From positions 7,203 to 71,202 of the forward strand of contig CAIOGI010000009.1 in NCBI GenBank assembly GCA_903857825.1: a stretch of 64,000 bases of DNA, read 5' to 3'. The DNA comes from Candidatus Tayloriibacteriota bacterium. Its GTDB lineage: Bacteria > Patescibacteriota > Minisyncoccia > Phycocordibacterales > PALSA-1337. The notes under the pieces were generated by a model, which had not been told where the DNA came from, ran no database searches, and saw only the letters and a program-made list of their open reading frames with translations. Shown here one piece after another: positions 1 to 49,022 of this stretch; the stretch's first letter is position 1; each line of letters opens with the position of its first letter. The position numbers and the translations under genes were made by a program.

Positions 1-523
1 TATTCTCAGTACCACCATCTTTAGGTCTTTCTCCTTCTTGAGTAATTATAACGTCAAAATCTGATTCAGGGAACCAGCCAATTTCATGAGATTCTATTCT
101 AAATATCTGGCGTGAACCAAGTGTATCTTTTTTAGAAAGTCGTTCTATAACAAGCTTAAGTAACTCAGGAGATTTAAGACTTTTTGATGCATGGATAAAG
201 ACCGCCTTTCTTGAATTTCGTTCAACATATTGAGCAATAAATACCCTGGTACAAACTTCGCCAGTAAGACCAGTACTCTTAAGGTCCGCCTTGTCCTCTA
301 TTGTCACGCATTCATTTCTCACGTCAACATTCGTCGGATTATTTAATGATATTTGGTAGTCCTCAATAATATCTGGAAATAATGATTCTAGACGAGCAGA
401 TTCTTTCGTATCTTTTTCTTCCTGTGAAATATACAAACTACTAACAAGAACAGATTCTCTTGCGTAGATAAACACTCCCACTATAACAATTATTACTAGC
501 GCTATAATTAGTATTTTTTTCAT
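1..523 (-). CDS. hypothetical protein with N-terminal signal-anchor/TM helix; C-terminus runs off the window
   Basis: Minus-strand ORF starting at ATG 521-523 (MKKILIIALVIIVIVGVFIYARES...) and continuing to the window edge. Its ATG overlaps the TGA of the GAPDH-tail fragment ORF (ATGA). Confidence 0.4.
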   Translation of the reverse strand, partial: MKKILIIALVIIVIVGVFIYARESVLVSSLYISQEEKDTKESARLESLFPDIIEDYQISLNNPTNVDVRNECVTIEDKADLKSTGLTGEVCTRVFIAQYVERNSRKAVFIHASKSLKSPELLKLVIERLSKKDTLGSRQIFRIESHEIGWFPESDFDVIITQEGERPKDGGTEN

Positions 524-645
524 ATAATTTTAATTATTAAATAATTCTCCCCCGCCTTCACCAAATGCTCCACCAAAATATTCGTATACCCCATTTCATA
601 TCGGTACCATGCTGGCAGATTTTTCATGTTTTTCGACTTTTTCAT
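520..645 (-). pseudogene. displaced GAPDH C-terminal fragment A (att remnant)
   Basis: Translates to MKKSKNMKNLPAWYRYEMGYTNILVEHLVKAGENYLIIKII. The intact gap at 48030-49022 ends ...LAWYDNEMGYTNTLVRHVIEAGKLI. The 21 nt tattcgtataccccatttcat (578-598) are identical to 48071-48091. Confidence 0.7.
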
Positions 646-975
646 AACTTTATTTTAACACGAGATTCAATTTGATTTAAATTCCTAGTACGCTCGTCTT
701 TCAAAATAGCAATAACATTGTGACCTTGAAAGGCGAGCGAGGATTGGAAATTTAGCTGTCAAAGTTCGTTAACATCATCATAAACAAACGCTTGTTTAAT
801 AGCAAGCGTCAAAATACGGCCTTTTTTATGGCCTTAATTCGCCTTTTCTTTCCACTCAACTTCCCCATCAAGCTGAAGTGTTTTTTGCCATATTTGCGGA
901 TCGTTGTTGATCCACCCTTACGACCTAGCTGTTGCGCTGCCTTGTTTTTCACATGTTTATTATAACAGACATAAA

Positions 976-1968
976 CTAGTAGTGAAGTGCTTTAGTTCTT
1001 GGCATTTTGTATTTTCGCATTCTTTGATTCCTTGGTACATTTCTGAATGCATCATATCGTCTCTGCAAATCGGGACCAGTCATCATGGTATAAATCATCG
1101 AGCTCTCCAAGCTGGAATGGCCAAGAATATTTGAAACATCTGAATTCGATCCGCCTTTGTTTACAATATCACGACCCATGAAATGTCTCATAGAGTGAGC
1201 ATTCAGAGTTGGTATGCCAGCACGGTTAGAATTTGTGCGTAACATTTCAGCAACTCCTACCACGGACATTCTTCGTCCTCTTACTGCATTTTGTCCACAT
1301 TTAGAGATCGATATAAATAAGGCATCAAGATCTTCAAAAGTAAAAAGTGAAAACAAATGTCTTCGTTTTTTGACCCATCTCTTTAGAAGAGCATTCGTGC
1401 TTGGTGTCCAGAATATTTCTCGGATCGGACGACGGCCACGAGATTTTTCAGTTCTGATCAGGGCTGTTCTCTTGCTCAAATTTAGGTCGCTTACATTGAG
1501 TGATAGTATTTCTCCATTTCTCGCGCCAGTATCCCATAGCAATGCCATCAGAGCACGATTTCTAATATGATGCGGTTTATTATCCTTCGGTATGGAGTTA
1601 ATAAGTTTTCTATATCCCTGTTCTGTTGCAATACGTGGTATGTTGTACTCCTTACGAGGAGTAGGTATAAGTGATTCGTTAATCACATTGAATTTCTGTA
1701 GGTTATAAAATTCAAAGAATTTCTTAAGCGCTAATGTGACAATAATTATGCCGTTCCGCTTCCAGCCGAGATCTTTCATCATATTCAAATAGTTCATCAC
1801 GTCATTGAGCGTGATGGATTCGATATGCGGATTACGCAAGTAGAGGCAAAATATTTTGAGAACCTTGTCATATCTAACTACGGTATGACTGGATACCTTG
1901 ATCTGTCTCCAATTGCTAAATTCATTTATTGCGTCTTTGAATAACATAATGGCAACCAAAAAGTCCAC
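976..1968 (-). CDS. int: tyrosine recombinase / phage-type integrase (XerC/D family)
   Basis: C-terminal catalytic motifs HSMRHFMGRDIV ... LGHSSLESSMIYT (R..H..R..Y). The ORF track uses GTG at 1968; an in-frame ATG at 1948 (MLFKDAINE...) is the more likely start. Confidence 0.85.
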   Translation of the reverse strand: MDFLVAIMLFKDAINEFSNWRQIKVSSHTVVRYDKVLKIFCLYLRNPHIESITLNDVMNYLNMMKDLGWKRNGIIIVTLALKKFFEFYNLQKFNVINESLIPTPRKEYNIPRIATEQGYRKLINSIPKDNKPHHIRNRALMALLWDTGARNGEILSLNVSDLNLSKRTALIRTEKSRGRRPIREIFWTPSTNALLKRWVKKRRHLFSLFTFEDLDALFISISKCGQNAVRGRRMSVVGVAEMLRTNSNRAGIPTLNAHSMRHFMGRDIVNKGGSNSDVSNILGHSSLESSMIYTMMTGPDLQRRYDAFRNVPRNQRMRKYKMPRTKALHY

Positions 1969-1996
1969 TCGATGCTACTCAAAGTGGACTTTTGGT
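1956..1996. promoter_or_regulatory. strong hairpin (14-15 bp stem, 12 nt loop) at the integrase 5' end
   Basis: accaaaaagtccact-cgatgctactcaa-agtggacttttggt. No T-run follows, so it is not a terminator. It overlaps the integrase start region. Confidence 0.4.
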
Positions 1997-2296
1997 GGCT
2001 GTCAGCTCAACGAGCATCTTGCCATTCCCTAGCTAGGGAGACGTAGTCTTACGACCACATCATTTACATTTTCCCCTATCCTTTCGGAAATAGCAAGGCA
2101 ATGTTAATCAAAAGTCCATTGGTAGCATCTGGCTAGAATAGCCTGATCCCTTTCGGGTACAATGGAATAATATTCGGTTGTCACTACATCCTAGTGTAGT
2201 GTCTAGCCATTGTCAAGAAGGATTATTCATTATGTAGTGTTGTTAAAGCAAAAATACTATATTGTCAATCAAAATAAGGGTATTTTGACCATTCCA

Positions 2297-2355: not shown

Positions 2356-3372
2356 TTAATCCAGTCTTTTCCGCATTTCCTTCAAGAACCAGATTACCTC
2401 GGTATTTAGGGTCGGCAGAGGCTCATTTGTGCCCACCTTTACTGGTATAGAGACCCTTGGATGGATTCCCAGAAGATCCCCTATCACGATGATCCGACCA
2501 CTTTCTTTGCTGATACGGTTGAATAGGTCGATTGCAACATTCAGGAAGGTGACTGATAGCTCCCGAGCATTCTCGGCAGGCATGCTTGTCCACTTTTCCA
2601 TCATACCAAATGGTAAAATGTAAGGATAGGCACAACTGTGGCTTTCCGCTGTTTGAACCGGCGCGAAGCTATGAGCTACATGCACACCGACAACACGTCC
2701 GCATCCAGGAACGAATGGGATAAGGTCGCGGTCGGCGATCCACTCGAACAGATTTTCGAAAGCATGAACGATCACGAGCTCGCCTTTGAAGGCTTTCTCG
2801 ATGACCGCCTTAGCCCCGATATCACAGAAGCCAACGATGACTGTAACAACATTTACGCCACGGGCTTCGAGCTCCTTGAGAATGTAAAGACAGGTATTGC
2901 CCCTGAATGCCCCTTCCTTGGCAAGAATCACGGGGCGGCCTGCAATTCTAAGGGTCAGATCGTCAAACTGCTTGTCGAGGTAATCAAAGCCTGGACGCGG
3001 ACCGTACCCGAGCATTTTGCCGTCCCTATCAAAGAGCCGGTTAATGCTTAGGTTCAGACCTTCCTGATTCGGATTCAAATCGTCCATCTCTGAGCAGGTG
3101 ACCAGAACGGCATGCCGATTATTCACAGCGATACATTCATGGACTTGATCCCAGATTTCTAACCTGAGATCATTCTTGTCGACGGGGTGAATCGCAGCAT
3201 TCGGAAATGCACGAGTTACCCTCTCGAGAAGACTTTGGTGCAGATGTCCGAATATTGGATCATCCAGATTCGGGACCGTCAGACCTTTCGATAGGAACGA
3301 TTGTAGACCGCTTGCTACGTCAAAGGAAACCACGCAGGTTCCCTGACGAGCTACTGGACTGGCAGATTGCAT
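2356..3372 (-). CDS. hypothetical protein (higher-GC gene next to the integrase); function not recognised
   Basis: 338-aa ORF with coding-like composition. No motif assignable with confidence. Confidence 0.45.
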   Translation of the reverse strand: MQSASPVARQGTCVVSFDVASGLQSFLSKGLTVPNLDDPIFGHLHQSLLERVTRAFPNAAIHPVDKNDLRLEIWDQVHECIAVNNRHAVLVTCSEMDDLNPNQEGLNLSINRLFDRDGKMLGYGPRPGFDYLDKQFDDLTLRIAGRPVILAKEGAFRGNTCLYILKELEARGVNVVTVIVGFCDIGAKAVIEKAFKGELVIVHAFENLFEWIADRDLIPFVPGCGRVVGVHVAHSFAPVQTAESHSCAYPYILPFGMMEKWTSMPAENARELSVTFLNVAIDLFNRISKESGRIIVIGDLLGIHPRVSIPVKVGTNEPLPTLNTEVIWFLKEMRKRLD

Positions 3373-3461
3373 AGGAACCTCCCTTTCTTGTGGTTGTTGA
3401 GTTGACTACGTTGAAAGAACACATCTGCTCTAGTCTATATTGGAATCAGCGAGAATGCTAC

Positions 3462-3779
3462 TTATTTATCCTCACCCTTGAGTCGCTCAATCATCATCTT
3501 GTATCCTCCACATCCTTCCTTCAGCCAGCGGTTGATCTTTGTAATGGTTACTGGAGATTCACCTGTTTCTTCTTGAATCTGTGTAAAAGGCACACCAGCG
3601 TAGAGTTTTTTAGCGACTTCCCAACGCATAGCGAATTCTCGGAGATCCCGTTCGCTCATAAGGTCTCGAAAAAAAGCTTTAAGTTCATCCTCGTTTTTGA
3701 TAGATAAAAAAGCCTTGAGCAAATCAGGAGATTTATTCTCTAATTCAGACCATATTCCATTTTTTTCTTCTTCAGTCAT
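3462..3779 (-). CDS. TrpR-like DNA-binding protein (YerC/YecD family)
   Basis: FRDLMSERDLREFAMRWEVAKKLYAGVPFTQIQEETGESPVTITKINRWLKEG matches the YerC/YecD TrpR-like fold. Confidence 0.6.
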   Translation of the reverse strand: MTEEEKNGIWSELENKSPDLLKAFLSIKNEDELKAFFRDLMSERDLREFAMRWEVAKKLYAGVPFTQIQEETGESPVTITKINRWLKEGCGGYKMMIERLKGEDK

Positions 3780-3884
3780 AGATACATTTTATCACTTGTT
3801 ATTAATCAAGCAAAGCCGACATGTTCAAATCGATATGAAATGAGGACATTACTCAATTTTTTATATATATGGTAATTATACCCT

Positions 3885-4187
3885 ATGCCCATATATAAAA
3901 TAGATCCGTTCAAGGAAGCAAGAAAGAACGCCCATATCTGGCGTGGCGAGAATGCCACCATCTGGTACAACGAAAAGCTTGATGGATCGTTCTCTGTTCT
4001 GGTGCTATACGAATTCGGGGATAAAAAACGCAGGCTTTTTTTGGAAATCAACGATCAGGATCGGCTTATAGAATTCAAAAATGATGATTTGCTATCGGAA
4101 CAATTTTCATCATTACTACAAGAAATTCTCACTATAGAAAAGTTAATTTCAAATTCAAAAGATTTGACTGGGTCTTTACCCTTCTGA
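3885..4187 (+). CDS. hypothetical protein
   Basis: 100-aa ORF, the only plus-strand gene in this block. No recognisable domain. Confidence 0.3.
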   Translation: MPIYKIDPFKEARKNAHIWRGENATIWYNEKLDGSFSVLVLYEFGDKKRRLFLEINDQDRLIEFKNDDLLSEQFSSLLQEILTIEKLISNSKDLTGSLPF

Positions 4188-4198: not shown

Positions 4199-5233
4199 CT
4201 ACTGAGTCTGCTCAAATGAATAATTGACGCTCTGGCTAATCGAAGTATTTTTATTGCTAAAATAATTGTTAAATATAAATACTGCACCGATAATAGCCAC
4301 AACTGCAAGTCCGTTGGTGATAAGATCAGGATGTTTTAAATTAAAATTAATGGCAGTATGCAGAACCAACGCCAATAACACTATACCGAGAATAATATAC
4401 AATATAATATTGAATGAATGATGTGGTGAAGCGACGATCCGTTCAAAAAACGAAGGTTCATTTTGATTTTGAGAAGAGACTTGGGCATTATCTGAAGATT
4501 CAGAAATAACCTTATCAGGTATCGTCTGGGTCTTATCATTTGCTTCGGGAATAGCTGTTTCAGCACCTAGAACATTTTCTGTAGGCATATCAATAGCTAC
4601 CGATTGCGTAATAGCTTGAGTATGCACTTCGTCTTTATATGCCATAGCTACTGTTTTAGTTGGCTTTGGGTTTGCGTACACTTGGGCGATAAATACCGTC
4701 TCCCTGCCTTCAAACATCCCGGTTGCCACCCCTGTTCCGACCTCTCGGTATGATGCTTTTACGATGTTTGCCCGATGGGTCGGCGAATTCATCCAGGCTT
4801 TAGTGACATCTTCCGAATCAGTAAAATTAATAGCCAAATTTTCGCCGGCATAATCATATTGATACCCGACAGTATTTAGCCAGTGCCAGGGCGTTATTCC
4901 TTCTGGGCTCGTATGTGCAAAATATCCTTTTTTGGCCATGTCATCGGCTTTCAATTGAGCCGCTTCAGTCAAAAGCGGACTTACAACGAGATCAGGAAGT
5001 TTATTGTGTTCTCTTTCTTCATTTGTCAGGGTGGCAAGAACGGCTGGCAGAACACTAGCGAGATTGGAATTTTGAACAATAGCAACAAATGTTATAGTCG
5101 GTACAATGAAAGCAAGAAGTTCAAGAACCAAAACAATGCCGACTATAGATTGAGCGTTTTTCCCATGCAAAAAATGCGGCCGAAAGTCGTTTCCATGATG
5201 AGGTATAAAATGTTTTTTCAACCAGGAAATCAT
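4199..5233 (-). CDS. CAP/SCP/PR-1 domain protein with N- and C-terminal TM segments
   Basis: GYFAHTSPEG...WMNSPTHRANIVKASYREVGTG is the CAP (YkwD-like) signature. Hydrophobic N- and C-termini. Confidence 0.6.
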   Translation of the reverse strand: MISWLKKHFIPHHGNDFRPHFLHGKNAQSIVGIVLVLELLAFIVPTITFVAIVQNSNLASVLPAVLATLTNEEREHNKLPDLVVSPLLTEAAQLKADDMAKKGYFAHTSPEGITPWHWLNTVGYQYDYAGENLAINFTDSEDVTKAWMNSPTHRANIVKASYREVGTGVATGMFEGRETVFIAQVYANPKPTKTVAMAYKDEVHTQAITQSVAIDMPTENVLGAETAIPEANDKTQTIPDKVISESSDNAQVSSQNQNEPSFFERIVASPHHSFNIILYIILGIVLLALVLHTAINFNLKHPDLITNGLAVVAIIGAVFIFNNYFSNKNTSISQSVNYSFEQTQ

Positions 5234-5300
5234 ATCGTGTTCAATTATACAACAATCCCCCGCCCTTATAAAGATGCGGGGGATTGTATATAAAGCCTTA

Positions 5301-5732
5301 CTATCCGTTGATCTCTGCTCTGGTCAGAGGACCAAAGAATCCAGTGACATATCCGATGCCTGGATGTGCTGCTTGAAACGCTTTCAGCGCCGCAAAGGTG
5401 ACTGGACCGAAATAGCCAGTATCAGTGGGATGCTTGAAAAAGCCTTCAGCGCGGAGGAGTTTCTGGAGCTCCATCACCTCATTGTCTTGCATGCCCATAC
5501 GCAAGTCTTTTGTGAAGAGGAATGTCTCCGCTCCCAAGACTCGAGGGGTTGCAACTGTTACAACGGGCACAGGAACATACCAACCTCCACCACCGCCACC
5601 ACTACTGTAACTACCACTGCTGCTGCTACTGCCACTACTTCCGTAGCCGTACGCCGTACCAAAACCAACTGCTGAAATCAGCACAAGGCTAAGTGCTGTT
5701 AGAGTTGATTTTATGAATATTTTTTTGTTCAT
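5301..5732 (-). CDS. secreted peptidoglycan-binding domain protein with a Gly/Ser-rich linker
   Basis: Signal peptide, then a poly-G/S stretch, then a PG_binding_1-like region (MELQKLLRAEGFF...GYFGPVTFAALKAFQ). Confidence 0.6.
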   Translation of the reverse strand: MNKKIFIKSTLTALSLVLISAVGFGTAYGYGSSGSSSSSGSYSSGGGGGGWYVPVPVVTVATPRVLGAETFLFTKDLRMGMQDNEVMELQKLLRAEGFFKHPTDTGYFGPVTFAALKAFQAAHPGIGYVTGFFGPLTRAEING

Positions 5733-5854
5733 AATTTTTTATTTGGCGATATTATTAAAGCCAAACATTTATTAATAATAATTATACTATAGACCAAACG
5801 CGAAGTTAAGGCTTTTATTCACGTTCCAAACATGTTACCATAAAAGAAAGTTAT

Positions 5855-7363
5855 ATGCAAGAGTCAACTTATCCACAAACAAAAAGGACAAATCTAACAT
5901 ATGGCCTACTGGCTGTGTTCTCTGCCGTTCTGATCTTGGGCGGTTTTTTTCGACTCTATAATCTGGGATCTCAGTCATATTGGATGGATGAAGGATATAC
6001 AATCAACGCGGTCAAGGCGATCCAAGAAAAGGGTTCGACAATTCTTGATTCAGGTCTTCCTTATTTTTGTCCTATGTACTGTTATCCGACGGCACTTATA
6101 TCAAACGCCTTAGGTGCTTCGCCGACAAGTTATCGCTTACTTTCAGTTTTGACAGGTCTGGCATTCATTGTAGCAATGTTTTTTATTACGCGAAAATTGT
6201 TCAATCAGAATGTAGCCATGTTAACATCTGTAGCACTGACTTTTTCATATTGGCAGATCGCATGGTCGCGCCAAGCTCGCTGGTACACCCTGTTTGCTTT
6301 ATTCTTCTGGGTTGCGCTTTATTTTTTTCATCAATCACTTTATGGAGAAAAGAACAGAGCTTGGCATGGTATTTTTGCTGTCGTTTTCACTATCTTCGCA
6401 ATTATGACTCATGGCTTGGGATACCTCTTGCCCTTGATATTCATCGGCTGGATCCTGATTGATCGAATATTCTTAGGCAAAAAAATGAACTTTGGATACC
6501 TGATCAAGGTGATCAGTACCATAGTTGTCTTGGCTACAATCTCGCTAGTATTTCTATCGCAAAAGTTTGGAATTCATTATGAGCTTCCCTACTATGTCAG
6601 TTTTTACATAAGAGCTTATTGGCTTTTCTTGATATTTTTGATAATCGGATTCTTTGCGATTACGCATTCAATGAAACGAGAAATGTATTTCTTACTTTTT
6701 GTTCTATTATCGTATCTTATTCCTCTCTCATTTCTAACAAACATAGTCCATTACAGATACCTTTTTCATGTCACTCCAGTATTCATACTGCTTGGCACAG
6801 CTGGCATGTTAGCGATCAATGATAATTTGAAAAATAACTACACGAAATCATCATTTTGGATCGTACTCACTATCCTATTCTTTACTATCGGCGGCGGAGT
6901 CTTTATTCCACGTACTGAATATTTTTTGGAATCCGATAATCCAGAAACAATCGGTGAGAGACCATCGTACGCCTATACACCGCAACCAGATTGGAATGCT
7001 GCATATGAATTTCTCGAGATAAACAGAGAGGAGGGAGACATTGTCATATCAAGTCAGCCGCAATTTACCAAGATTTTTCTTAATGATCCAGGATATTGGA
7101 TCAAGTACGACTATCTTGGTTTTGCAGACCAGGTAAAGGAACCTACAGGCGACACTGAATACTATGTTGGAGCAAAAGTAATTGATGATCTACAGGAACT
7201 TCAGGTAATTGCTTCGTCTGCGCATGGTTTTGTTATATTCGATCATATGTCCGCGGATGGAAAGATTGCGGAAAATATTATCAGCTACATTCGAGACAAT
7301 TTCAAGTTGGTGTTTGAAAAAAAGACAAACCCTTGGTCAGAGGTGTGGATTTATAAATTCTAA
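5855..7363 (+). CDS. GT-C fold integral membrane glycosyltransferase-like protein (ArnT/PMT, GT39/83-like)
   Basis: Eleven or more predicted TM helices. The N-terminal loop YWMDEGYTINA resembles the polyprenyl-P-sugar dependent GT-C transferases. Confidence 0.5.
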   Translation: MQESTYPQTKRTNLTYGLLAVFSAVLILGGFFRLYNLGSQSYWMDEGYTINAVKAIQEKGSTILDSGLPYFCPMYCYPTALISNALGASPTSYRLLSVLTGLAFIVAMFFITRKLFNQNVAMLTSVALTFSYWQIAWSRQARWYTLFALFFWVALYFFHQSLYGEKNRAWHGIFAVVFTIFAIMTHGLGYLLPLIFIGWILIDRIFLGKKMNFGYLIKVISTIVVLATISLVFLSQKFGIHYELPYYVSFYIRAYWLFLIFLIIGFFAITHSMKREMYFLLFVLLSYLIPLSFLTNIVHYRYLFHVTPVFILLGTAGMLAINDNLKNNYTKSSFWIVLTILFFTIGGGVFIPRTEYFLESDNPETIGERPSYAYTPQPDWNAAYEFLEINREEGDIVISSQPQFTKIFLNDPGYWIKYDYLGFADQVKEPTGDTEYYVGAKVIDDLQELQVIASSAHGFVIFDHMSADGKIAENIISYIRDNFKLVFEKKTNPWSEVWIYKF

Positions 7364-7366
7364 AAA

Positions 7367-8497
7367 ATGAATTTGCTTAAATATCTGAACAGAGGTAAAT
7401 TAATCGTAATGAAACAATTTTGGAATAATGTCAAAGATGGTCAATGGCTCAAATCACATGCTTTTTGGTTAAGATTTTTTGCATACGGGATACCATTTGC
7501 TTTTCTTCTATATATGCTTTATTGGAACTTTTTGCCTTTCGGATACGATAAAGAGTTTGTTATAGATGTCGGATCACCTTCTGATATGTCTGGAGAATTT
7601 AGGCTTAAGCCGTCAGAGTACCTGTCGGATCGAATGTCTACCACTACCATGAATGGTTTTGTAGAGACTTGGAGAGAAATTAGTGGACCAATTTATGCAG
7701 TGTATAACCCTTCAGGAGTTCTTCGCGATAAACGCATGTATATTGATGTTGAAGGTGACAATGTTACAGTAATGCCGTTAGAAATTAGTGACGATTATAG
7801 TAGATATGACTGGGATTATATATGGGATTTCACACATGGTTCCAAACCAGCTGAATTTTATGGTAAAGCAGATTTTTTCTCAGATAACAGTACTCAAGCA
7901 TGTGCTTACTTTGACGGAAATTCGGGAGACCGGCTCGAGTTGTCAAATTCTGCCGATCTTTTTGAAGATCAGGCATTCTCTGTATATGTAAACTGGCAAC
8001 CAGATAACGACGCAACGAGTTCTCAACAAATTGTCGGACATTATAATTGGGAACTCTTTCAAAATCGTGATAGCGTTGTCTTCCAAGTAGGCAGAATGAG
8101 TAATCAGAATGGCCCTTTTTTCTCCATTCGGTATCCTGTCACTCCTGATTTTTTTGGGAGGAAACATGCAGCATTGGCTATATATAATCCCTCCAATGAA
8201 GACGGCCGTATTGATCTGTATATTGACGAACGATATGTTGGCAGGACATATTTTCAGCGGTTGAGAATATGGCCTGGCTATAATAGTAATCGAGATCTTT
8301 CTTTTGGTAAGAGCGAACATGGAAATGGTACATATTTTACAGGATGTATATTTAGATCCGCTATTATGAATGGAGTAGCAATCAGCGATAGAAAAAACTT
8401 ATCATATCGCATAAATGGTATGGGTGAAATCTCCATACCACTAATGACCACAGGAAGATCAGTAATCCGATCCGTAATTTTACGCGTCAATAATTAG
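7367..8497 (+). CDS. membrane-anchored LamG/concanavalin-A-like lectin domain protein
   Basis: One N-terminal TM segment. FSVYVNWQPDN...ALAIYNPSNEDGRIDLYIDERYVG matches the LamG jelly-roll pattern. Confidence 0.4.
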   Translation: MNLLKYLNRGKLIVMKQFWNNVKDGQWLKSHAFWLRFFAYGIPFAFLLYMLYWNFLPFGYDKEFVIDVGSPSDMSGEFRLKPSEYLSDRMSTTTMNGFVETWREISGPIYAVYNPSGVLRDKRMYIDVEGDNVTVMPLEISDDYSRYDWDYIWDFTHGSKPAEFYGKADFFSDNSTQACAYFDGNSGDRLELSNSADLFEDQAFSVYVNWQPDNDATSSQQIVGHYNWELFQNRDSVVFQVGRMSNQNGPFFSIRYPVTPDFFGRKHAALAIYNPSNEDGRIDLYIDERYVGRTYFQRLRIWPGYNSNRDLSFGKSEHGNGTYFTGCIFRSAIMNGVAISDRKNLSYRINGMGEISIPLMTTGRSVIRSVILRVNN

Positions 8498-8498
8498 A

Positions 8499-10442
8499 AT
8501 GACTAACATCTCCACAATTAACAGAAAATCATATAGAGCATGGATCGTATTTCGTACATACTTTGTTACGCCTTTTTGTCTCACTTCGTTTTCAATTGGT
8601 ATAGGACTTTATATCTATTCTTTTTTTTCAAATTCCTTTATTTGTCCAAGCTGGGTATTAATTATTTCATCGATACTCGGATATATAGCGATCCTTAACC
8701 GCATTCATGATAGATTTAGAATATCACTACTGATCTTCATTTCTTGCTTGTTCTATTTGCTGATAATAATTCTAACTGGGGCTGATGGAGTTTTTCTGAA
8801 AATCACAAACTCAGTTGCATTTTCGGTTATGATTTCCTCTTTGGCTTATCTTTGCATTAGTAAAATTTTTTATCACTCAGAGAATAGTTCAGGTCTTGAG
8901 GCCATCAGTAAAAGTAAGAAGGGTCTATACATATTTCCATGTCTGCTGGTCATCCTAATTTCATTTGGAATATTTATACGTATGAAAGGTGTTGCTTCAC
9001 TTGGTTTTTGGTTCGATGAATCGATTTCAGCGCTAGTGGCACAGCGCATCTCCGGTGGATGGTCGGACACATTCCTATCCGGAATTCATTATGGACGGGG
9101 ACTTTTCTATCACTATATACTTTCCCTATTTACTGGATCATTCGAAAATATATATTTTGCCAGTCGACTAGCTAATGTAGTCTTCTTCATTCCAACAAGT
9201 ATTGTTGTTTATCTCTGGACTAAGAGAATTCGTGGCGAATACGCGGCTACTATAGCCACGAGCATATTTTGCTTAGCACCATTTAATATAGCAATGTTTC
9301 GCGAAGCTAGATTCTATGAATTCTTATCACTACTAGTAATTTTGATTGGATTCTTTTCGTATATTCTCATTGAGAAGATCATTAAACAAAATAAAGGGAA
9401 AATACTGATATCTAAAATTAAAATTGACCTGGAAACTATTTTGCTATTCGCAATGATTGTGGTACTGGGTATCTTAGCATTACAAACTAATGAAATTGTC
9501 GCCTATCTGATTTATTTTCCAATTGTTTTTGGTCTATATATGCTGGTAATCTTTCGAGAAAAATTTGGAATTTATCTTATCCTTTCCTTTTTTTCACTAT
9601 TAATCGCAGCACTGCTTATTAAATATGGTCTAGATTTCAAATATATCTATATATTCAAACAACCACAAATACCATGGAAGGCTTTGACATCAGCAGAAAG
9701 TTTCTCGGCTTTCTTTCACTATTTTCTCAGTATTGCCGATCCATATTTTCGAATCATTATTCCAATCGGCTTTCTATGGATTACGACAAGATTAAAGGAT
9801 TGGAAGGCTCAGTATGTATTCCTGTTTGTGATCTGTATCTACTCAATTATAAGCATACAAGGATATGGATTGGCCGGTTTGAGATATTACTATTTTTTAA
9901 TGCCCTTCGTTGCCATTATTATCGGATTAAGTTTATGGAACCTCTTTTTGTTTTCAAATAATAAAATCGTTAGAATTTTTTCATCATTACTAATTATAAT
10001 GATACTTAGCGGCTATTTTATTGCAGGTATAAAAGAATCTAACGCTGTGGTAAATAGTGATTCAGTTGTTGATATTAAAAACGTTCAGCTAAATGATTCG
10101 TTTGCTTATTTACTTAGCCGGCCAGATATCCAAACATCAACAATCATTTCTGATCTGCATAGTTCAGTTCCATTCTACATTTATTCATCACGTATTCCGG
10201 ATTTCTTAATAGCTGAAGATCCTAAAATCGAACCAAACATTGTTCGTAACGGAAAAGATATATACCTTGGTATGAAAACAATAAACTTCACCGATATCGC
10301 TTCCATAAGTGATCAAAATACTTATGTTATTAACTGGTATTCTCCATCCCTGACTCCTAAAAACATGCAGGAGTTTTTACAAAATAATGGTGAATTAATT
10401 TACAAGCATGGACCAGAACGTATTTATCTTATTAGGAAATGA
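8499..10442 (+). CDS. GT-C fold integral membrane glycosyltransferase-like protein (ArnT/PMT-like)
   Basis: 647 aa and polytopic. GFWFDESISALVAQRISGGW loop. Large C-terminal periplasmic domain. Confidence 0.5.
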   Translation: MTNISTINRKSYRAWIVFRTYFVTPFCLTSFSIGIGLYIYSFFSNSFICPSWVLIISSILGYIAILNRIHDRFRISLLIFISCLFYLLIIILTGADGVFLKITNSVAFSVMISSLAYLCISKIFYHSENSSGLEAISKSKKGLYIFPCLLVILISFGIFIRMKGVASLGFWFDESISALVAQRISGGWSDTFLSGIHYGRGLFYHYILSLFTGSFENIYFASRLANVVFFIPTSIVVYLWTKRIRGEYAATIATSIFCLAPFNIAMFREARFYEFLSLLVILIGFFSYILIEKIIKQNKGKILISKIKIDLETILLFAMIVVLGILALQTNEIVAYLIYFPIVFGLYMLVIFREKFGIYLILSFFSLLIAALLIKYGLDFKYIYIFKQPQIPWKALTSAESFSAFFHYFLSIADPYFRIIIPIGFLWITTRLKDWKAQYVFLFVICIYSIISIQGYGLAGLRYYYFLMPFVAIIIGLSLWNLFLFSNNKIVRIFSSLLIIMILSGYFIAGIKESNAVVNSDSVVDIKNVQLNDSFAYLLSRPDIQTSTIISDLHSSVPFYIYSSRIPDFLIAEDPKIEPNIVRNGKDIYLGMKTINFTDIASISDQNTYVINWYSPSLTPKNMQEFLQNNGELIYKHGPERIYLIRK

Positions 10443-11697
10443 TAGGTGCCTTCACCTCTGATCGAACAAGGGCTTTAATTCTCATGAAATAAATAACTCG
10501 GACAGTTACAAGCATGCATATAGATGCTATCAAAGTTGCGTATATCGGTCCCATATATCCCATAAGACGTAATAATATAATACTGAGAACAACATTAAAA
10601 ATGGCAAGTACGGAATAAAATATCGTCATAATTTTTGCATGGCCAGTGGGAATGATGATACCTAAATCAACTGTTAGGGCAGAAGCATAGAAAACAAAAA
10701 TCATTACTGAAAACGGTAAAATTTGAAATAATAGATCATTGTAATATGCCGGATAAAATTGCTTAACGAAAATAGGAATGAGAAACATGCTTATAGTTCC
10801 GATTGTTACTGCCGCCAACATAGTCAGTAGCGTATATTTTTTTAGATGTGAGTGGATACTTTTATATTCCCCCCGCATATTCAAATGAGTGAAGTTTGGT
10901 GCAATTACCTGGGCCAAGATCGCAAAAGGACCCGATAAAATCATAAAGATGCGATTCAAAAAGTCATAGGTGGCAATTTGGTCAAGATACCCGTAGTGAC
11001 CAAGTAAAACTATATCTGTGCGAGAAAAGATCTGGTAACCAACTGCAGCAACCCCACAAATAAATGAATAGGTGGCAATATTCTTTAGGACAGACCGGTC
11101 TATTCTAAAACTCAATTCTTTATGTGCAATCGCTAGTGCGATAATCAGAATGGAATAAAATACAATTTGGCTTACCATCGCTCCGTATATGCCATATTTC
11201 TGGACTAGAAAATATATAGGAATAACGAAAACAATCCCTATACCCATAGTGATCAGTGATAAATATTTAAATCTTTTTAAACCGCGAAAAATCCCATCAT
11301 AAAGATAGGAGATCGGGATTAGAAATGTGAGAATGACTATGAATAAAACATAACTCACTTGCATATGTAGGATGTATGTATTTATAACAATAAAGCCTAG
11401 TGAGAGCGTGGCTGCTACTGTCGCAATCAGTATAAATGAACTTGCTACAATTGATTTTAGTTTTGTCTGGTCGGTTTTCGAGTACTCAGCGACATACTTA
11501 CTTGTGGCTGTCGATATCCCGAAGTCCCCCACTAACCCAAGTAGAACGGCAATTGATGATACATAGCTATAAAGACCCACCTTCCCAGGATCTACAAGAT
11601 GCGCCACGATGAAGAATATGAATATATTCATTCCTTGTTTTACGATTAATTGCGCACCTCTCCAAATGGAGGATTTGATTATATTATTCATGTTCAT
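10432..11697 (-). CDS. Wzx-like oligosaccharide flippase / polysaccharide biosynthesis protein (MOP superfamily)
   Basis: 12-14 TM helices with a polysacc_synt-like layout. Lies next to the GT genes. Confidence 0.55.
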   Translation of the reverse strand: MNMNNIIKSSIWRGAQLIVKQGMNIFIFFIVAHLVDPGKVGLYSYVSSIAVLLGLVGDFGISTATSKYVAEYSKTDQTKLKSIVASSFILIATVAATLSLGFIVINTYILHMQVSYVLFIVILTFLIPISYLYDGIFRGLKRFKYLSLITMGIGIVFVIPIYFLVQKYGIYGAMVSQIVFYSILIIALAIAHKELSFRIDRSVLKNIATYSFICGVAAVGYQIFSRTDIVLLGHYGYLDQIATYDFLNRIFMILSGPFAILAQVIAPNFTHLNMRGEYKSIHSHLKKYTLLTMLAAVTIGTISMFLIPIFVKQFYPAYYNDLLFQILPFSVMIFVFYASALTVDLGIIIPTGHAKIMTIFYSVLAIFNVVLSIILLRLMGYMGPIYATLIASICMLVTVRVIYFMRIKALVRSEVKAPIIS

Positions 11698-14705: not shown

Positions 14706-14779
14706 GTTTTAAAGTATAACACATAATATATTGGTTGTCTATTTATCGTGACTAAGGCTTTTGATTTTAAATCATCTAC

Positions 14780-15148: not shown

Positions 15149-15191
15149 AATAAATCTATAATTCTTCTGCTAATCTATTAACATTTTTTTA

Positions 15192-15947: not shown

Positions 15948-15950
15948 GTT

Positions 15951-16847: not shown

Positions 16848-16940
16848 ACAATGTGGATGTTCTCAATATGATAACATGCGAAAAGAATTAATTGAAGGCC
16901 TGATATAGATTTCGAACCGTAACTCTGATATAATTATTTA

Positions 16941-19441: not shown

Positions 19442-19442
19442 A

Positions 19443-37976: not shown

Positions 37977-39440
37977 TCATATAAGTCCGATTACTTCTGG
38001 ATTCTGCATTCCCTGCTGCACCAAGCCGAGAATAAGATACACGAGCGCATCGACGAGGTCGTCGTGTTCTTCGATTCCGAATCCGAGAAGCTGGATAATG
38101 AGATCTTCACAACCTGTGTGTGGAAAGACTACTGTCCCGTTTTGAATGTAGACGGCAACTGCTCGAAGCCTAGCCCTCTTGTCGCCCCCTGCCGTCATCG
38201 CAATTACTGGTAGGAGTGCACGCTCCATTTCTTCTATGGCCGCTTTCTGATATGCCACATTTTCCACAAAGAAAAGTGAGAAAGGATTCGCTGTAGACAT
38301 CGCTTTAGTTGTTTCTATCGTTTCATGGAATGAGAGACGTGCATTGAGCGGATTCGGCCTAATATATATTTTTGGTATACCGTCTTTTACGAATGAAGTG
38401 CCCGATACCATCGCAGTACAATCCGCGGTTTCTTTCTTGCTGATTGCCAAGTCGACTCCTGTCCCAGAGAGTCCAGTTTGCAGTTCCGGAGGCTCAATAT
38501 CATAATACTGAATCCATTCCTCTTTAATATCTGAACCTTCTTCAGGAACAATCTTGAGAAGATACTCCCTTTGCCATGCGGTTGCTCCCACCTTATCGCG
38601 CTGATCATCGAGTGCTTGCTTGGTAGGATATTTTGCTGACCATCTCGTTTTTTCATTCTTAATAAGTGCATACTCAAGATGTTTGAATGATTTGTATCTA
38701 TTCAGCCGTGCCATGAGTGCATCAGTATGGAGTTGGTTTCCGATAACGATAAGCCTTCCCTGTGCTTCGTCTATTGCAGGGATAATTTCCCCTCTCAGCC
38801 ATCTTTCCGTTTTATCTCTATTTTCTTTTGTACGAACCCATTCCAAATCTTCAGGGTCATCAATGATCACAAGACTCGGTCTGTTTTGTCTGTGACGAAG
38901 ACCTCTGACTTTCTGTCCTCTCGATCGGGCTAGAATGCGGACACCATTGGAGAGCAGCATGTTTTTTGCCTGCCATTCTTCTTCGCTTTCAAGAGTGAAG
39001 TCCTCACCGAACTTTCCCTTGATCTCTCCGTAGTCCTGCATAATGAGTGTATTATTTTCAAGCTCCTCCTTGATGTTTGCAATATTGATAGCCGACTGAA
39101 GTCCCGTATCAGCAATAGGTAGGATGAACGGATACAGGTCAGGATGTTCAAGAGCCGCCCACAACGGCAGAGCCAGGGACCCGAACGTTGATTTTGCACT
39201 TCCACGAAATCCCAAGACCTCGATCATTTTTTCTCTATGATCTCCTAGTGCTGTTAGAAGCTCATCATGGAAATCGGCGGGGGCTATGGTTAAATAATGC
39301 GGAAGATAAATTAAACAAAAGCCTTTGAGCGTACGCGCCATCTTACGGCGCATCTCATGATCATCAAGAAAACTTTTATTTTGCCACCACGATTGCAGTG
39401 GTTGGATTGGATCCATTGTTAGTGTTTTTTGTTTCTGCAT
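37977..39440 (-). CDS. terL: terminase large subunit
   Basis: Walker A GFRGSAKST, Walker B LVIIDDPE, C-terminal nuclease region. Confidence 0.85.
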   Translation of the reverse strand: MQKQKTLTMDPIQPLQSWWQNKSFLDDHEMRRKMARTLKGFCLIYLPHYLTIAPADFHDELLTALGDHREKMIEVLGFRGSAKSTFGSLALPLWAALEHPDLYPFILPIADTGLQSAINIANIKEELENNTLIMQDYGEIKGKFGEDFTLESEEEWQAKNMLLSNGVRILARSRGQKVRGLRHRQNRPSLVIIDDPEDLEWVRTKENRDKTERWLRGEIIPAIDEAQGRLIVIGNQLHTDALMARLNRYKSFKHLEYALIKNEKTRWSAKYPTKQALDDQRDKVGATAWQREYLLKIVPEEGSDIKEEWIQYYDIEPPELQTGLSGTGVDLAISKKETADCTAMVSGTSFVKDGIPKIYIRPNPLNARLSFHETIETTKAMSTANPFSLFFVENVAYQKAAIEEMERALLPVIAMTAGGDKRARLRAVAVYIQNGTVVFPHTGCEDLIIQLLGFGIEEHDDLVDALVYLILGLVQQGMQNPEVIGLI

Positions 39441-45632: not shown

Positions 45633-45638
45633 TGATGA

Positions 45639-46039: not shown

Positions 46040-46066
46040 TATAGAAAAGACCCGGTGTTACCAGGT
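46040..46066 (-). terminator. rho-independent terminator ending the gap-cassette transcript before the prophage
   Basis: Minus strand: AAAGACCTGG-taacac-CGGGTCTTT then TTCTATAT. Located ~40 nt after the stop of fragment B. Confidence 0.45.
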
Positions 46067-46102
46067 CTTTAAATCAAATTATTAAGTTGTGAATCTTTGT
46101 CG

Positions 46103-46177
46103 CTAGACTAATCTACCCGCAGCAATGACATGATTTACGAGGGTGTATGTGTACCCCATTTCATCAATATGCCACGT
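46103..46177 (-). pseudogene. displaced GAPDH C-terminal fragment B
   Basis: Translates to TWHIDEMGYTYTLVNHVIAAGRLV*. Shares taccccatttcat with the gap 3' end. Abuts the stop of ORF 46177-46515. Confidence 0.65.
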
Positions 46178-46515
46178 CAATCTCCATCATATTTTTTATC
46201 GTACTTTCGCGAACCGAAGATCGTAATTAGAATTGGAATTAAAATTAATATCCACGTCCATGAGTCTATGGCTCTAATTGTAAGTTTTTCAACATTGCAA
46301 ACTACTCCACCATAATAACCACAAGGTGATCCTTTGATCATGAACAATATATTTGTGTGAAAGAAATTATCAGTAACATAGAAGATTCCCACCAAAACGA
46401 TTCCAACTGTCATAACAACTGATATGCAGTAAGTAATAAAACCAAGAAAGCTCAAAGAAAAAATCCACTTTATTAGCTTTTTTGTTGGATCACTATTATT
46501 TGTTTTCATATTCAT
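46177..46515 (-). CDS. small integral membrane protein (112 aa), cargo of module 2
   Basis: Three predicted TM helices. Its start lies 6 nt after the stop of fragment C. Confidence 0.45.
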   Translation of the reverse strand: MNMKTNNSDPTKKLIKWIFSLSFLGFITYCISVVMTVGIVLVGIFYVTDNFFHTNILFMIKGSPCGYYGGVVCNVEKLTIRAIDSWTWILILIPILITIFGSRKYDKKYDGD

Positions 46516-46521
46516 TGATTA

Positions 46522-46572
46522 TTAAACTACCCTCCCCGCCTTCACCACATGCTCCACCAACATATTCGTATA
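46522..46572 (-). pseudogene. displaced GAPDH C-terminal fragment C (17 codons)
   Basis: YTNMLVEHVVKAGRVV**. Nucleotides 46531-46572 are ~95% identical to 546-587 of fragment A. Confidence 0.6.
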
Positions 46573-46705
46573 CTTTACATAATTATTATAACACTTAATT
46601 CTAATGTTTCTAATATCATCATGAAAATATATGCTTAATACATGTGGGAATTTATGATTATTTTGTTTCAAAGAATTAGCAAATTATATACAAACACTTT
46701 AAAAA

Positions 46706-47149
46706 CTATTTTAGACTAGTGGTTAAATAACACCTAAAAACATGTTGCTCAATAACACTAAGGTGAAGATAAATATTACCAACACCCCAAGATTGAGATT
46801 TTTCATTTAATTCATTCTCGGTTTCTATTTCCGAAGGTTTGCCAAAAATTTTAATGAGATGCTCTGACACTTTATCAAATCCAGACAATGAGAGCTTGTC
46901 CTCCCACAAACCCTCTGGGTTCAATCCAATGTACGCAGTGATTGATTTAAAAGATTCGTCCTTTGCTATTCCATTATCCGAATAAAGAGGATACTCCAAT
47001 CCCTGTAAGTAAGTTACAGAATTCCAGGAGTACCTGTCTCCAAACCAAATTCCACCAGTATCTTTCGCTAATTCATTTAATGGCTTCCCCCATTCTAAAA
47101 TAATATCGGGTTTTTCTAAAGGAAAACCTTTTAAAAAAGGATTATTCAT
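46706..47149 (-). CDS. hypothetical protein (147 aa), cargo of module 3
   Basis: Clean ORF with no recognisable domain. Its start lies 5 nt after the stop of fragment D. Confidence 0.4.
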   Translation of the reverse strand: MNNPFLKGFPLEKPDIILEWGKPLNELAKDTGGIWFGDRYSWNSVTYLQGLEYPLYSDNGIAKDESFKSITAYIGLNPEGLWEDKLSLSGFDKVSEHLIKIFGKPSEIETENELNEKSQSWGVGNIYLHLSVIEQHVFRCYLTTSLK

Positions 47150-47154
47150 TGTAT

Positions 47155-47241
47155 TTATTTAACAAGTTCATTAGTTCCTATTACACACCTCACCAATGTA
47201 CGGGTGTACCCCATCTCATTGTCGTACCAAGCCAGCTTCAT
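47155..47241 (-). pseudogene. displaced GAPDH C-terminal fragment D
   Basis: MKLAWYDNEMGYTRTLVRCVIGTNELVK*. Differs from the intact gene at synonymous positions (GAC/GAT, GAG/GAA), so it is a diverged mimic, not a recent duplicate. Confidence 0.65.
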
Positions 47242-47351
47242 GGACTTATTATATCACAATCTTAGAAAAAACATCCCGCGCTCACCTCTTCCAAACTCGA
47301 TAGTTCAAGTGCAAACCAATCATAAATCCACCCCTGACGAATAGCAAGGAG

Positions 47352-48026
47352 TTAGGCTTTGGGTGTATAAGTTATCTGCTGCCATATTTCCGTCATTTTG
47401 GGCATATTAAATGTTATACTCTTCTGCTGCTTATTCCAATTTTTGTTCCACTCATCGATTGACACGCTGAAAACTTTTTGAATAATTGCATCCTCATCAC
47501 CTTCCATTTTTACTCTCAAACTAACACCATTAAAAGTCACGGTCCCATCGTAATAAATGCTTCCAATTTTTTCTCCCCATTTTCCTTCTGATACCCATGT
47601 AGTAATATTTGCAGACCAATCCACTATAAACCCTTCCGAACTATACTTCTTAAAGGAAATATCATTGCCAGTGAGACATCCATCAAGATCATTACCTAAG
47701 ACACCTTCCCAATAAAAGCGATAATCATCTTTAAAAGGATCCTTCCAAGTTTCTACACAATGAACACCCACAAGATTATGAATTGAAGAAAACTTTTCAA
47801 AATTTTCTAAAACAGGAAACATGAGGTTTGGTGCAGCAAAACCATCTTCACCAGAGTTTTTTGAAATATCAACACCTATTGTTCCCTGTGCATAATTGTT
47901 ATAATTTGACCCATATTCCTCCCAAGTTCCCGTGTGTATGAATATAGATAATTGAGCTTTTGAGGATTCAAAAGTTCCGTTGATTTCTTTGCTGTATGGG
48001 TAATCTTGAATTTTGAAAGTATTCAT
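47352..48026 (-). CDS. hypothetical protein (224 aa), cargo of module 4, immediately downstream of gap
   Basis: Clean ORF starting 4 nt after the gap stop. No recognisable domain. Confidence 0.4.
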   Translation of the reverse strand: MNTFKIQDYPYSKEINGTFESSKAQLSIFIHTGTWEEYGSNYNNYAQGTIGVDISKNSGEDGFAAPNLMFPVLENFEKFSSIHNLVGVHCVETWKDPFKDDYRFYWEGVLGNDLDGCLTGNDISFKKYSSEGFIVDWSANITTWVSEGKWGEKIGSIYYDGTVTFNGVSLRVKMEGDEDAIIQKVFSVSIDEWNKNWNKQQKSITFNMPKMTEIWQQITYTPKA

Positions 48027-48029
48027 ATA

Positions 48030-49022
48030 CTAAATTAGTTTTCCTGCTTCAATTACGTGTCTAACCAACGTATTCGTATACCCCATTTCATTATCGTACC
48101 AAGCCAATACCTTTACCAAATTCCCCCCAACTACTCGTGTAAACGCAAGATCTGCAATAGATGCATGCAGATTACCCTTTATATCTGAAGAAACCAAATC
48201 TTCTTCTGTAACTGTAAATATACCTTTCCAACGTGCTTCACTGGCAGCTTTCTTTAGGATTGCATTTACTTCTTCTGTTGTTGTATTTTTCTTTGAAATG
48301 AAAGTAATATCCACAATAGAACCTGTAACAACTGGAACTCGTATAGAAATACCATCAAAAAGTCCATTCAAGCTAGTCATAATCTTCGTGACAGCGATAG
48401 CTGCACCAGTCGATGAAGGAACTATGTTCTGAGCAGCTGCACGGCCTTCTCGCATGTCCTTCTTGCTTGGACCATCAACTATAGCTTGGCTGGCTGTATA
48501 GGCATGTACAGTGTTTAATAAAGCTTTTTCTACGCCAATAGCTTCATCAAGAATAGCAAGCAGAGGACTTCCAGCGTTTGTGGTACATGAGGCATTTGAT
48601 GAAATCTGACATGTGCTAAGTTTCTCCTCATTCATTGCCATTAAAACAGTTTCACCCTTTATAACTGAAGCTGGATCATCTTTTAATGGAGCTGTAACGA
48701 CAACTCTCTTTGCGCCAGCAGTGATATGAGCTTGTGCTTTATCACTAGATGTAAACAAACCAGTTGATTCAACAACAACATCAACACCAAGATCACCCCA
48801 AGGAAGTTTTGTTGGATCTTTTTCACTTAAATATTTCACTCCTTCTAATGTGCAGTCGCTCTTTCCATAAACTGAATCGTATTTTAATAGATAATTTACA
48901 TTTTCTAGAGATGTTAAATCATTTACAGCAATAACTTCTATATTTTCATTTTGCTTTGCTAATTTATAAAAAGCACGTCCTATGCGGCCGAAGCCATTAA
49001 TTGCTACTTTAATTTTTTTCAT
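48030..49022 (-). CDS. gap: glyceraldehyde-3-phosphate dehydrogenase
   Basis: NGFGRIGR NAD-binding motif, active site SNASCTTN, C-terminal WYDNEMGYTN. Confidence 0.95.
   Translation of the reverse strand: MKKIKVAINGFGRIGRAFYKLAKQNENIEVIAVNDLTSLENVNYLLKYDSVYGKSDCTLEGVKYLSEKDPTKLPWGDLGVDVVVESTGLFTSSDKAQAHITAGAKRVVVTAPLKDDPASVIKGETVLMAMNEEKLSTCQISSNASCTTNAGSPLLAILDEAIGVEKALLNTVHAYTASQAIVDGPSKKDMREGRAAAQNIVPSSTGAAIAVTKIMTSLNGLFDGISIRVPVVTGSIVDITFISKKNTTTEEVNAILKKAASEARWKGIFTVTEEDLVSSDIKGNLHASIADLAFTRVVGGNLVKVLAWYDNEMGYTNTLVRHVIEAGKLI

Follow-up and report, generated by a model that had tools for sequence, protein, structure and literature searches.

Why would the gene for a central glycolytic enzyme be followed by a series of copies of its own 3′ end? 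The question is raised by a stretch of 64,000 nucleotides (nt) from a Candidatus Tayloriibacteriota bacterium (GenBank assembly GCA_903857825.1, contig CAIOGI010000009.1, positions 7,203 to 71,202), here called the window. In it, an intact gap gene, which encodes glyceraldehyde-3-phosphate dehydrogenase (GAPDH), is accompanied by four displaced fragments encoding GAPDH C termini and by a 45.5-kb segment with a tyrosine integrase. An initial annotation, made from the letters of the window, interpreted the arrangement as repeated site-specific integration that renews the tail of gap and pushes the previous tail outward. Our analysis makes it highly probable that a family of Paceibacteria integrative elements uses the 3′ end of gap as its bacterial attachment site (attB), and that repeated insertions built the tandem array seen here. 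The host itself belongs to the Paceibacteria (Patescibacteria, of the Candidate Phyla Radiation, CPR), and the nearest GAPDH loci are all from metagenome-assembled genomes of that group. Downstream from gap, the order is islet 1, tail D, islet 2, tail C, islet 3, tail B, the 45.5-kb segment, tail A, and the next open reading frame (ORF); the islets are short ORF-containing stretches between tail fragments (Table 1).

Displaced gap tails in the window

When the GAPDH of the window is used as a query against the window itself (tblastn), exactly four extra C-terminal matches are found, all on the minus strand and covering the last 25-28 residues of the protein: tail D (47161-47235, E 1.5e-6), tail B (46106-46180, E 1.3e-5), tail A (547-630, E 2e-5), and tail C (46525-46599, E 4e-3). 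There is no fifth match in the window, the next best having an E value of ~1. A profile made from 70-odd Paceibacteria GAPDH tails, scanned over ~1.5 Mb of gathered loci (given below as L numbers), scores D at 46.5, B at 39.0, A at 35.8, and C at 23.5 bits, compared with 15.2 bits for the top wrong-strand match in all of these loci. That wrong-strand match lies inside a distantly related phage contig from IMG/VR (L107 11509-11562, minus strand) and may be a chance similarity or an att-related remnant. Every fragment reaches a stop codon 0-8 codons from the homologous gap stop.

A short block within the fragments deserves particular attention. The core, ATGAAATGGGGTA (codons N-E-M-G-Y), is the sole block identical between fragments A and B; it is common to A, B, and the intact gap, and it is where phage-side and integrase-side sequences join, so that a direct repeat overlapping the gap 3′ end is present at both ends of the element. 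A longer exact repeat of 21 nt occurs at 579-599 and 48071-48091, and no shuffled version of the window contained two matches to it. Judged by the arm alignment, tail A appears to be the integrase-side arm (NLPAWYRYEMGY) joined to the gap tail that preceded the prophage (TNILVEHLVKAGENYL).

The tails are only ~42-58% identical in DNA, and the residues that they have in common mostly use different codons. Between gap and fragment B, 11 of 16 residues are identical, and 10 of these 11 are encoded by different codons. This divergence fits ends that each once worked in some lineage and does not fit recent local duplication.

Most of what was initially annotated for the fragments is upheld by these comparisons, including the count of four displaced fragments beside an intact gene and the view that copies differing at synonymous sites are not recent duplicates. 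The 21-nt repeat is real and its second copy was correctly located, with the first copy moved from 578-598 to 579-599. A claim that has to be given up is that all junctions fall within ~10 nt: in D, B, and A the homology sets in at the Trp codon of AWYDNEMGY, ~25-30 nt upstream of the core, and in fragment C not before YTN.

A phage that carries its own gap tail

By its gene content, the 45.5-kb segment is a temperate tailed phage, present as a prophage with terminase, portal, capsid, tail, replication, and integration modules. Its siphovirus-like body encodes an AAA_24 protein, RepO, RusA, two DNA methyltransferases, a protease, and connectors, as well as tail proteins, a tape measure, tail fibres, and a peptidoglycan-binding protein; matches to PHROGs include the portal (2e-107) and the tape measure (3.5e-24). 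The GC content of the body is 0.42-0.53, versus ~0.35 for the host, and the portal is at most 27% identical to that of any GenBank phage.

The strongest evidence on the origin of the tails comes from aligning fragment B of the window with four other loci (L009, L086, L088, and L090). Starting at GGGTACACATACACCC, the five have identical sequence across the tail, across the hairpin terminator, and on into the phage genes. Left of GGGTACACATACACCC, they differ: the sequence there is host gap in L009, L086, and L088, the islet 3 arm in the window, and an integrase-side arm in L090. In the first three, the phage-linked tail is the end of an intact gap. For instance, L009, whose GAPDH is 75% identical to that of the window, has the same prophage early genes directly after gap, and its intact gap ends in YTYTLVNHVIAAGRLV, the exact tail of fragment B. 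Based on this alignment, what tail B holds from GGGTAC onward is the copy of the gap tail that belongs to the phage itself (P′). Further, 5 of 34 IMG/VR contigs of this phage family open with a gap 3′ end followed by phage early genes; the AAA proteins of the IMG/VR relatives are 86-99% identical to that of the window. The phage-borne tail is followed by a hairpin and U-run, which would serve as a terminator that the phage supplies to gap. Its position is kept in related loci; in L009 the hairpin shows a compensatory change, and in L088 another hairpin takes its place. Between gap and fragment B, the minus strand has no predicted terminator.

At the other end of the segment, ~350 nt from tail A, lies a tyrosine integrase whose catalytic R, K, HxxR, H, and Y align with the XerA structure 4a8e (motifs ARNGE, K, HSMRH, GHSS, and IYT). 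Its best NCBIfam match is XerA, at 136 bits against a cutoff of 220, so that the equivalog cutoff is missed, and the next Xer models give 115 and 114 bits against cutoffs of 335 and 330. Since the protein falls below the cutoffs for XerC, XerD, and XerA, we regard it as a mobile-element integrase and not a housekeeping Xer. Nine metagenomic relatives of the integrase are 78-94% identical to it, and in eight of the nine a gap-tail fragment follows 340-400 nt past the integrase stop; the contig of the ninth is too short. The integrase-side arm is conserved across these loci up to GAAATGGGGTA and divergent beyond. In L128, the fragment after the integrase is followed by a 104-aa gene and then by rpiB-rpe-tkt, the conserved host neighbours. 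The integrase-side arm also holds an outward-facing promoter-like site, and a TGnTAnAAT-like element is kept at this position across the integrase relatives; judging from its position, transcription of rpiB-rpe-tkt downstream could start anew from it.

Independent evidence for tandem insertion is provided by the IMG/VR contig 3300025323_000513, on which gap is followed by a first prophage (~36 kb), an integrase, a tail fragment (LTWYSNELGY-TYTLVNHVIAAGRLV), and a second prophage. The integrase is 53% identical to that of the window, and the AAA protein of the second prophage is 94% identical to its counterpart in the window. This contig is an independent case of two full-size phages in tandem.

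The occupancy of the site varies across the group. In at least 19 Paceibacteria genomes the site is empty, with rpiB 1-21 nt from gap or overlapping it by 4 nt, and in ~30 genomes 0.2-4 kb of inserted ORFs separate the two genes. Extra tail fragments are found in L006, L010, L013 (three to four), L028, L040, L073, and L134. Four loci in which rpiB does not occur within 10 kb (L015, L029, L031, and L058) were considered as hidden prophages and rejected as ordinary synteny variation.

Islets and the extent of the array

The islets are 0.3-1.6 kb long and hold one or two ORFs each between att-like tail fragments. In nearly every islet, the ORF starts 2-16 nt past the stop of the preceding tail, a spacing like that between gap and rpiB in the native arrangement. 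No recombinase or phage-family matches were found in the islets, which lack an integrase, and no remnant phage genes or genes from integrative and conjugative elements (ICEs) were seen in them. The 224-aa ORF of islet 1 is an orphan without family matches and with homologues only within its own species, and hydrophobic segments suggest that the 112-aa ORF of islet 3 encodes a membrane protein. With flanking att-like sites and no integrase or transfer genes, islets 1-3 have the layout of cis-mobilizable elements (CIMEs).

The array does not end at the edge of the window. L135, a 178-kb contig of the same organism, shows it in full down to rpiB. Past the integrase come tail A, a 200-aa ORF, tail F, a 74-aa ORF, tail E, and ORFs of 426 and 105 aa; these are followed by tail G, a DUF6922-AbiEii pair, tail H, three ORFs (134 aa, a Fic protein of 147 aa, and 160 aa), and then rpiB, rpe, and tkt. 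The four extra tails (F, E, G, and H) bring the number of displaced tails in the genome to eight, four of them in the window, over ~53 kb between gap and rpiB. Thus, the initially annotated extent was correct for the window and too small for the genome. The distal fragments F and E are degenerate (18.9 and 23.4 bits).

Several islet genes have relatives at the same locus in other organisms. The 74-aa ORF has a 53% identical homologue at gap in L010, the AbiE pair is 47-56% identical in L013, and the Fic protein is 77% identical in L021. The 147-aa ORF of islet 2 has a 64% identical homologue downstream of gap in L134, from another organism, where both the preceding tail fragment and the upstream genes are different. 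The extended -10-like block that precedes tail D in the window also has a counterpart before the tail fragment in L134. The case for mobility of the islets comes from such homologues in other genomes, which suggest that islets have moved.

Two kinds of occupants recur more widely. DUF6922-AbiEii pairs and Fic proteins are found again in the gap-rpiB interval of different Paceibacteria genomes (Table 1). Small membrane proteins also recur in gap-tail islets (L013 11613-11825 and 12863-13291; L028 11036-11314); their common feature is a YWLRG motif at the N terminus or a GW(I/V/T)YGK motif at the C terminus.

Table 1. Features of the gap locus; positions are those of the window unless a locus is named
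Feature	Position	Strand	Evidence or remark
Intact gap (GAPDH, 330 aa)	48030-49022	minus	Pfam Gp_dh_N 1e-28, Gp_dh_C 4e-53
Core ATGAAATGGGGTA inside intact gap	48079-48091	minus	Inferred crossover region
Islet 1	47242-48029	minus	One 224-aa ORF, 47352-48026, starting 3 nt past gap stop
Extended -10-like motif TGTGATATAAT	47248-47258	minus	Just upstream of tail D; seen in sequence
Displaced tail D (MKLAWYDNEMGYTRTLVRCVIGTNELVK)	47155-47241	minus	Core at 47207-47219
Islet 2	46573-47154	minus	One 147-aa ORF, 46706-47149, starting 5 nt past tail D stop
Promoter-like site upstream of tail C	46585-46612	minus	Promoter scan
Displaced tail C (YTNMLVEHVVKAGRVV)	46522-46572	minus	Left arm degenerate
Islet 3	46181-46521	minus	One 112-aa ORF, 46177-46515, starting 6 nt past tail C stop
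Displaced tail B (LTWHIDEMGYTYTLVNHVIAAGRLV)	46103-46180	minus	Core at 46152-46164
Hairpin and U-run	46041-46069	minus	33 nt after tail B stop; -15.1 kcal/mol, z -4.9
Siphovirus-like prophage body	21129-46102	minus	PHROGs, Pfam, GC profile
TerL	37977-39440	minus	PHROGs 7e-65
Major capsid protein	32830-34029	minus	PHROGs 1.5e-27
Cargo between phage body and integrase module	4199-21008		Pfam, GC profile
Integrase-module genes (338 aa; 105 aa, Trp-repressor-like; 100 aa)	2356-4187		
Xer-like tyrosine integrase	976-1968	minus	Pfam Phage_integrase (PF00589) 1.4e-24, 87 bits vs cutoff 27
Outward-facing promoter-like site (TG-TAAAAT) in integrase-side arm	652-681	minus	~45 nt upstream of tail A; promoter scan
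Displaced tail A	520-645	minus	Homology 547-630, core 587-599; tblastn, profile, arm alignment
Start of next islet (200-aa ORF cut by window edge)	1-522	minus	Continues in L003 and L135
Toxin-antitoxin/abortive-infection occupants	L135 15737-16629, 17203-17646; L013 11903-12774, 13677-14580; L021 1155-1703		

A model for the growth of the array

The autonomous member of the family would be a siphovirus-like temperate phage that encodes a Xer-like tyrosine integrase. Its own attachment site (attP) would have three parts: an integrase-side arm mimicking the AWYxxEMGY codons; a short core, about ATGAAATGGGGTA, in which the crossover probably falls; and the phage's version of the final ~16 codons of gap, with a terminator behind it. 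Recombination within this core would join the host gap to the phage-borne tail, so that GAPDH would remain full length, and would shift the previous tail to the far end of the prophage, beside the integrase. As a result, each displaced fragment would be a hybrid of the arm of the gap-proximal element and the tail of the distal element. The last ~16 codons of the intact gap would likewise have come from an inserted element.

Repeated entry at gap or at displaced sites would then fill the space between gap and rpiB, its ancestral neighbour, with a tandem array. The proximal element need not be the newest because new elements can also enter displaced sites, and the initial idea that each insertion pushes the previous tail outward is supported with this amendment. 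The islets would have arrived via the same recombination, either as decayed elements or as passengers of phage excising from outer att sites. The passenger reading is favoured by the uniformly small size of the islets, their intact ORFs, and the lack of phage-family matches in them.

A much more speculative extension, which we consider improbable at present, would make the gap-rpiB junction of Paceibacteria an integron-like platform for the capture of small, mostly promoterless modules of one or two genes. Modules such as membrane proteins, the AbiE toxin-antitoxin pair, and Fic would be gained site-specifically behind the strongly expressed gap, each with its own gap-tail mimic and operon-like start spacing, and would be transcribed by read-through from the gap promoter. 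They would cross species with gap-integrating phages that excise at outer att sites, and the packaging capacity of the phage would keep them small.

Evidence that weighs against repeated integration

Several results weigh against repeated integration at gap, or at least against its being a current process. No excised or circular attP form was found in IMG/VR; of two attP junction patterns used to search that database, one returned nothing and the other only four known integrated contigs. Neither a phage-free nor an islet-free allele was present among the 14-15 contigs of the species that could be read at each end (the contexts of the 200-aa ORF and of gap), and the array may be fixed and inactive. 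Searching 80 genomic gap loci with the integrase of the window (phmmer) gave no integrase-family match within 10 kb, and the islet arrays elsewhere are thus without a nearby integrase of this family. In ~25 occupied gap-rpiB intervals, a tail fragment could not be detected. The intact gap ends in a tail (TNTLVRHVIEAGKLI) that L006 shares exactly and that L007 and L008 have in similar form; it thus looks native or, if imported, came from a close relative. Finally, the part of the cargo that lies at 6-21 kb has host-like GC content (0.34-0.39) and non-phage genes.

Other searches had little to return. A direct search of IMG/VR found no relatives of the integrase of the window. A probe for the late end of the phage, with the lysin gene, had one match, on a contig that stops 680 nt past the lysin. 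The GAPDH protein of the window has identical copies on 25 contigs, and its cluster, examined for members with alternative tails, consists of only two.

Alternative explanations

The alternative that survives best, although we consider it doubtful, concerns the islets: they could be remnants of full-size prophages or islands in which internal deletions spared both att ends. CIMEs are defined in the literature as deletion derivatives (PMC7563491), the islets have no integrase, and they show no polymorphism within the species among the 14-15 contigs. However, deletion would have had to leave at least seven islets here, and more in L006, L013, L028, and L073, all uniformly small, without a phage-family match in any of them and each with an intact ORF 2-16 nt past a tail stop. 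Homologous islet ORFs also occur beside different neighbours in other genomes, which speaks for small units that travelled as such.

A second alternative, which we think unlikely, divides the 45.5-kb segment into an integrase-less prophage (~21-46 kb) and an integrase-bearing island (~0.65-21 kb) whose intervening att site was lost. The drop in GC content from 0.42-0.53 in the phage to 0.34-0.39 over 6-21 kb is in keeping with such a division, as is the non-phage cargo in the 4 kb visible upstream of the integrase module in L121, L124, L126, and L128. However, tblastn detects no gap-tail fragment between the cargo and the phage, or anywhere from 650 to 46100, and searches with PHROGs and Pfam found no second recombinase in the segment, the phage part included. 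Further, the GC content of the integrase module is phage-like (0.43-0.46), and prophage 1 of 3300025323_000513 also ends with this integrase module, the 7 kb upstream of which hold no tail fragment. A single phage with cargo is the reading that we retain for this segment.

It is considerably less likely still that the array grew by homologous recombination of DNA from other Paceibacteria at the stretch coding for WYDNEMGY and at a second homology downstream. The core motif is almost invariant in GAPDH and so offers a short homology, and there is no integrase near the islets in other genomes; but the common identity amounts to only ~13-30 nt, independent phage insertions have the same-base junction and cluster at one core, and the distance between integrase and fragment is fixed in eight of nine relatives. 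Least credible of all is that the fragments are local duplications of the host's own gap 3′ end or functional small peptide genes, as the open frame to a stop codon in every fragment and the potential start codons and promoter-like sites upstream of D and A might suggest: local duplication is rejected on the codon divergence of the tails, tail B has an exact phage-borne counterpart in other genomes, and the distal F and E are degenerate.

Other genes of the 45.5-kb segment

Three genes (338, 105, and 100 aa) adjoin the integrase in the window and also in L090, L121, L124, L126, and L128. The 338-aa protein has no family match, and the three proteins are candidates for control of excision or directionality. 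Between the integrase stop and the att arm is a 47-aa lysine-rich ORF with a KGG motif (809-952, minus strand), which is kept in the integrase relatives (e.g., L121 6987-7160). The cargo beside the integrase module of L121 includes a gene (3063-3755) that is 74% identical to a host gene of the window (56873-57421, DUF6580/ECF-type), suggesting that these elements pick up host genes.

The cargo of the window comprises a LexA-S24-Dam fusion, a second Dam methylase, PD-(D/E)XK nucleases, a glycosyltransferase/flippase cluster, and peptidoglycan-binding and CAP proteins. The fusion is a 521-aa ORF (19443-21008, minus strand) that combines a LexA DNA-binding domain, an S24 self-cleaving peptidase, and a Dam-type (D12) adenine methyltransferase; such a repressor-methylase fusion is unusual and might be the prophage repressor. 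It is adjoined by the second D12 methylase (18320-19441). Next to the methylases, the region 14780-18323 encodes a DUF559/Vsr-like protein, two PD-(D/E)XK nucleases (one with NucS_C and DUF5655), and a 460-aa protein without a family, and from these domains it looks like a restriction or defence cluster. The ~9-kb cluster at 5855-14705 contains PMT_2, a Polysacc_synt flippase, two family 2 and one family 4 glycosyltransferases (GT2 and GT4), and two large proteins of no family. It sits within the att-bounded element, yet its GC content is host-like (0.34-0.39), and it may represent surface-modification cargo or a nested acquisition. In the phage body, two paralogous tail-fibre or collar-like genes of the same PHROG families (22592-23356 and 24554-25402, minus strand) flank an ORF with no match.

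Comparison with known integration systems

The mechanism itself is known. In Escherichia coli, the tyrosine-integrase prophages e14 and phage 21 replace the 3′ end of icd and leave a displaced pseudo-tail (PMC6379469), and tandem use of icd sites has been described (PMC7192596). As in those cases, insertion here is into the 3′ end of a gene of central metabolism, for which a replacement end is supplied. The differences are in the target, gap and not icd; in the length of the replaced segment, ~50 nt compared with 163-165 nt; in the CPR host; and in the eight displaced tails.

In streptococci, ICESt1 and ICESt3, integrative and mobilizable elements, and CIMEs accrete at the 3′ ends of fda, rpsI, rpmG, and rplL (PMC7563491). 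The gap array resembles these in its tandem, site-specific build-up at the 3′ end of a housekeeping gene, fda being also glycolytic, and in having att-flanked elements without an integrase, with or without cargo, beside an autonomous one. The initial comparison with ICE and CIME accretion at fda was thus apt, as the islets are att-flanked and lack an integrase as streptococcal CIMEs do. However, the autonomous element here is a phage and is not conjugative, eight segments are present where the composites listed for streptococci have two to three elements (PMC7563491), and most islet ORFs start 2-16 nt past a tail stop, as in the native gap-rpiB arrangement.

Elements that carry a fragment of their target in attP also keep tRNA and tmRNA genes intact at the 3′ end, and tandem arrays of them are known from the Islander/TIGER surveys (PMC7192596). 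With the core restored at both ends of such an element, arrays can form. Here, the target is protein-coding. There is also some likeness to integrons: a Xer-related tyrosine recombinase, ordered short units with single ORFs, imperfect repeats of ~50-90 nt, and a strong promoter upstream. An integron was nevertheless rejected, as the integrase is not IntI (43.7 bits with the integron-integrase model, against a cutoff of 265). In addition, the integrase lies inside a prophage, 45 kb from the proximal islets; the repeats mimic coding sequence and not attC; and no attI or Pc platform is present.

No report in which gap or GAPDH serves as an attachment site came up in full-text literature searches, and the words glyceraldehyde, gapA, and GAPDH are absent from the text of PMC7192596 and from parts of its supplement. 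What is new, then, is the target gene, the CPR host, the phage lineage, and the length of the array. The central proposal of the initial annotation, repeated site-specific integration that renews the gap tail, is supported by the phage-borne tail B, the link between integrase and tail, and tandem prophages elsewhere. Its companion claims have fared similarly well: the tyrosine integrase beside the distal fragment is real, mapping of the junctions shows that phage-linked sequence begins at the same base in five loci, related genomes have both the predicted empty sites and variable occupancy (the latter in ~30 genomes with inserts and seven loci with extra tails), and the lack of a prior report holds as far as the literature searches reach.

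Implications for Paceibacteria and their phages

Gap joins the conserved genes that are used as integration sites, and accretion of the streptococcal style operates also in bacteria with very small genomes. Contigs at the gap locus may break or be mis-binned. The array of eight tails is a record of successive insertions, and it could be used to study how elements spare an essential gene and its downstream operon, by way of a supplied tail, a terminator, and an outward promoter. Literature searches show that described patescibacterial prophages are few and, to our knowledge, few phage-host pairs have been established for CPR bacteria. A phage-borne gap tail makes it possible to assign uncultured phages to hosts in the Paceibacteria from sequence, as it does here with more than 30 IMG/VR contigs.

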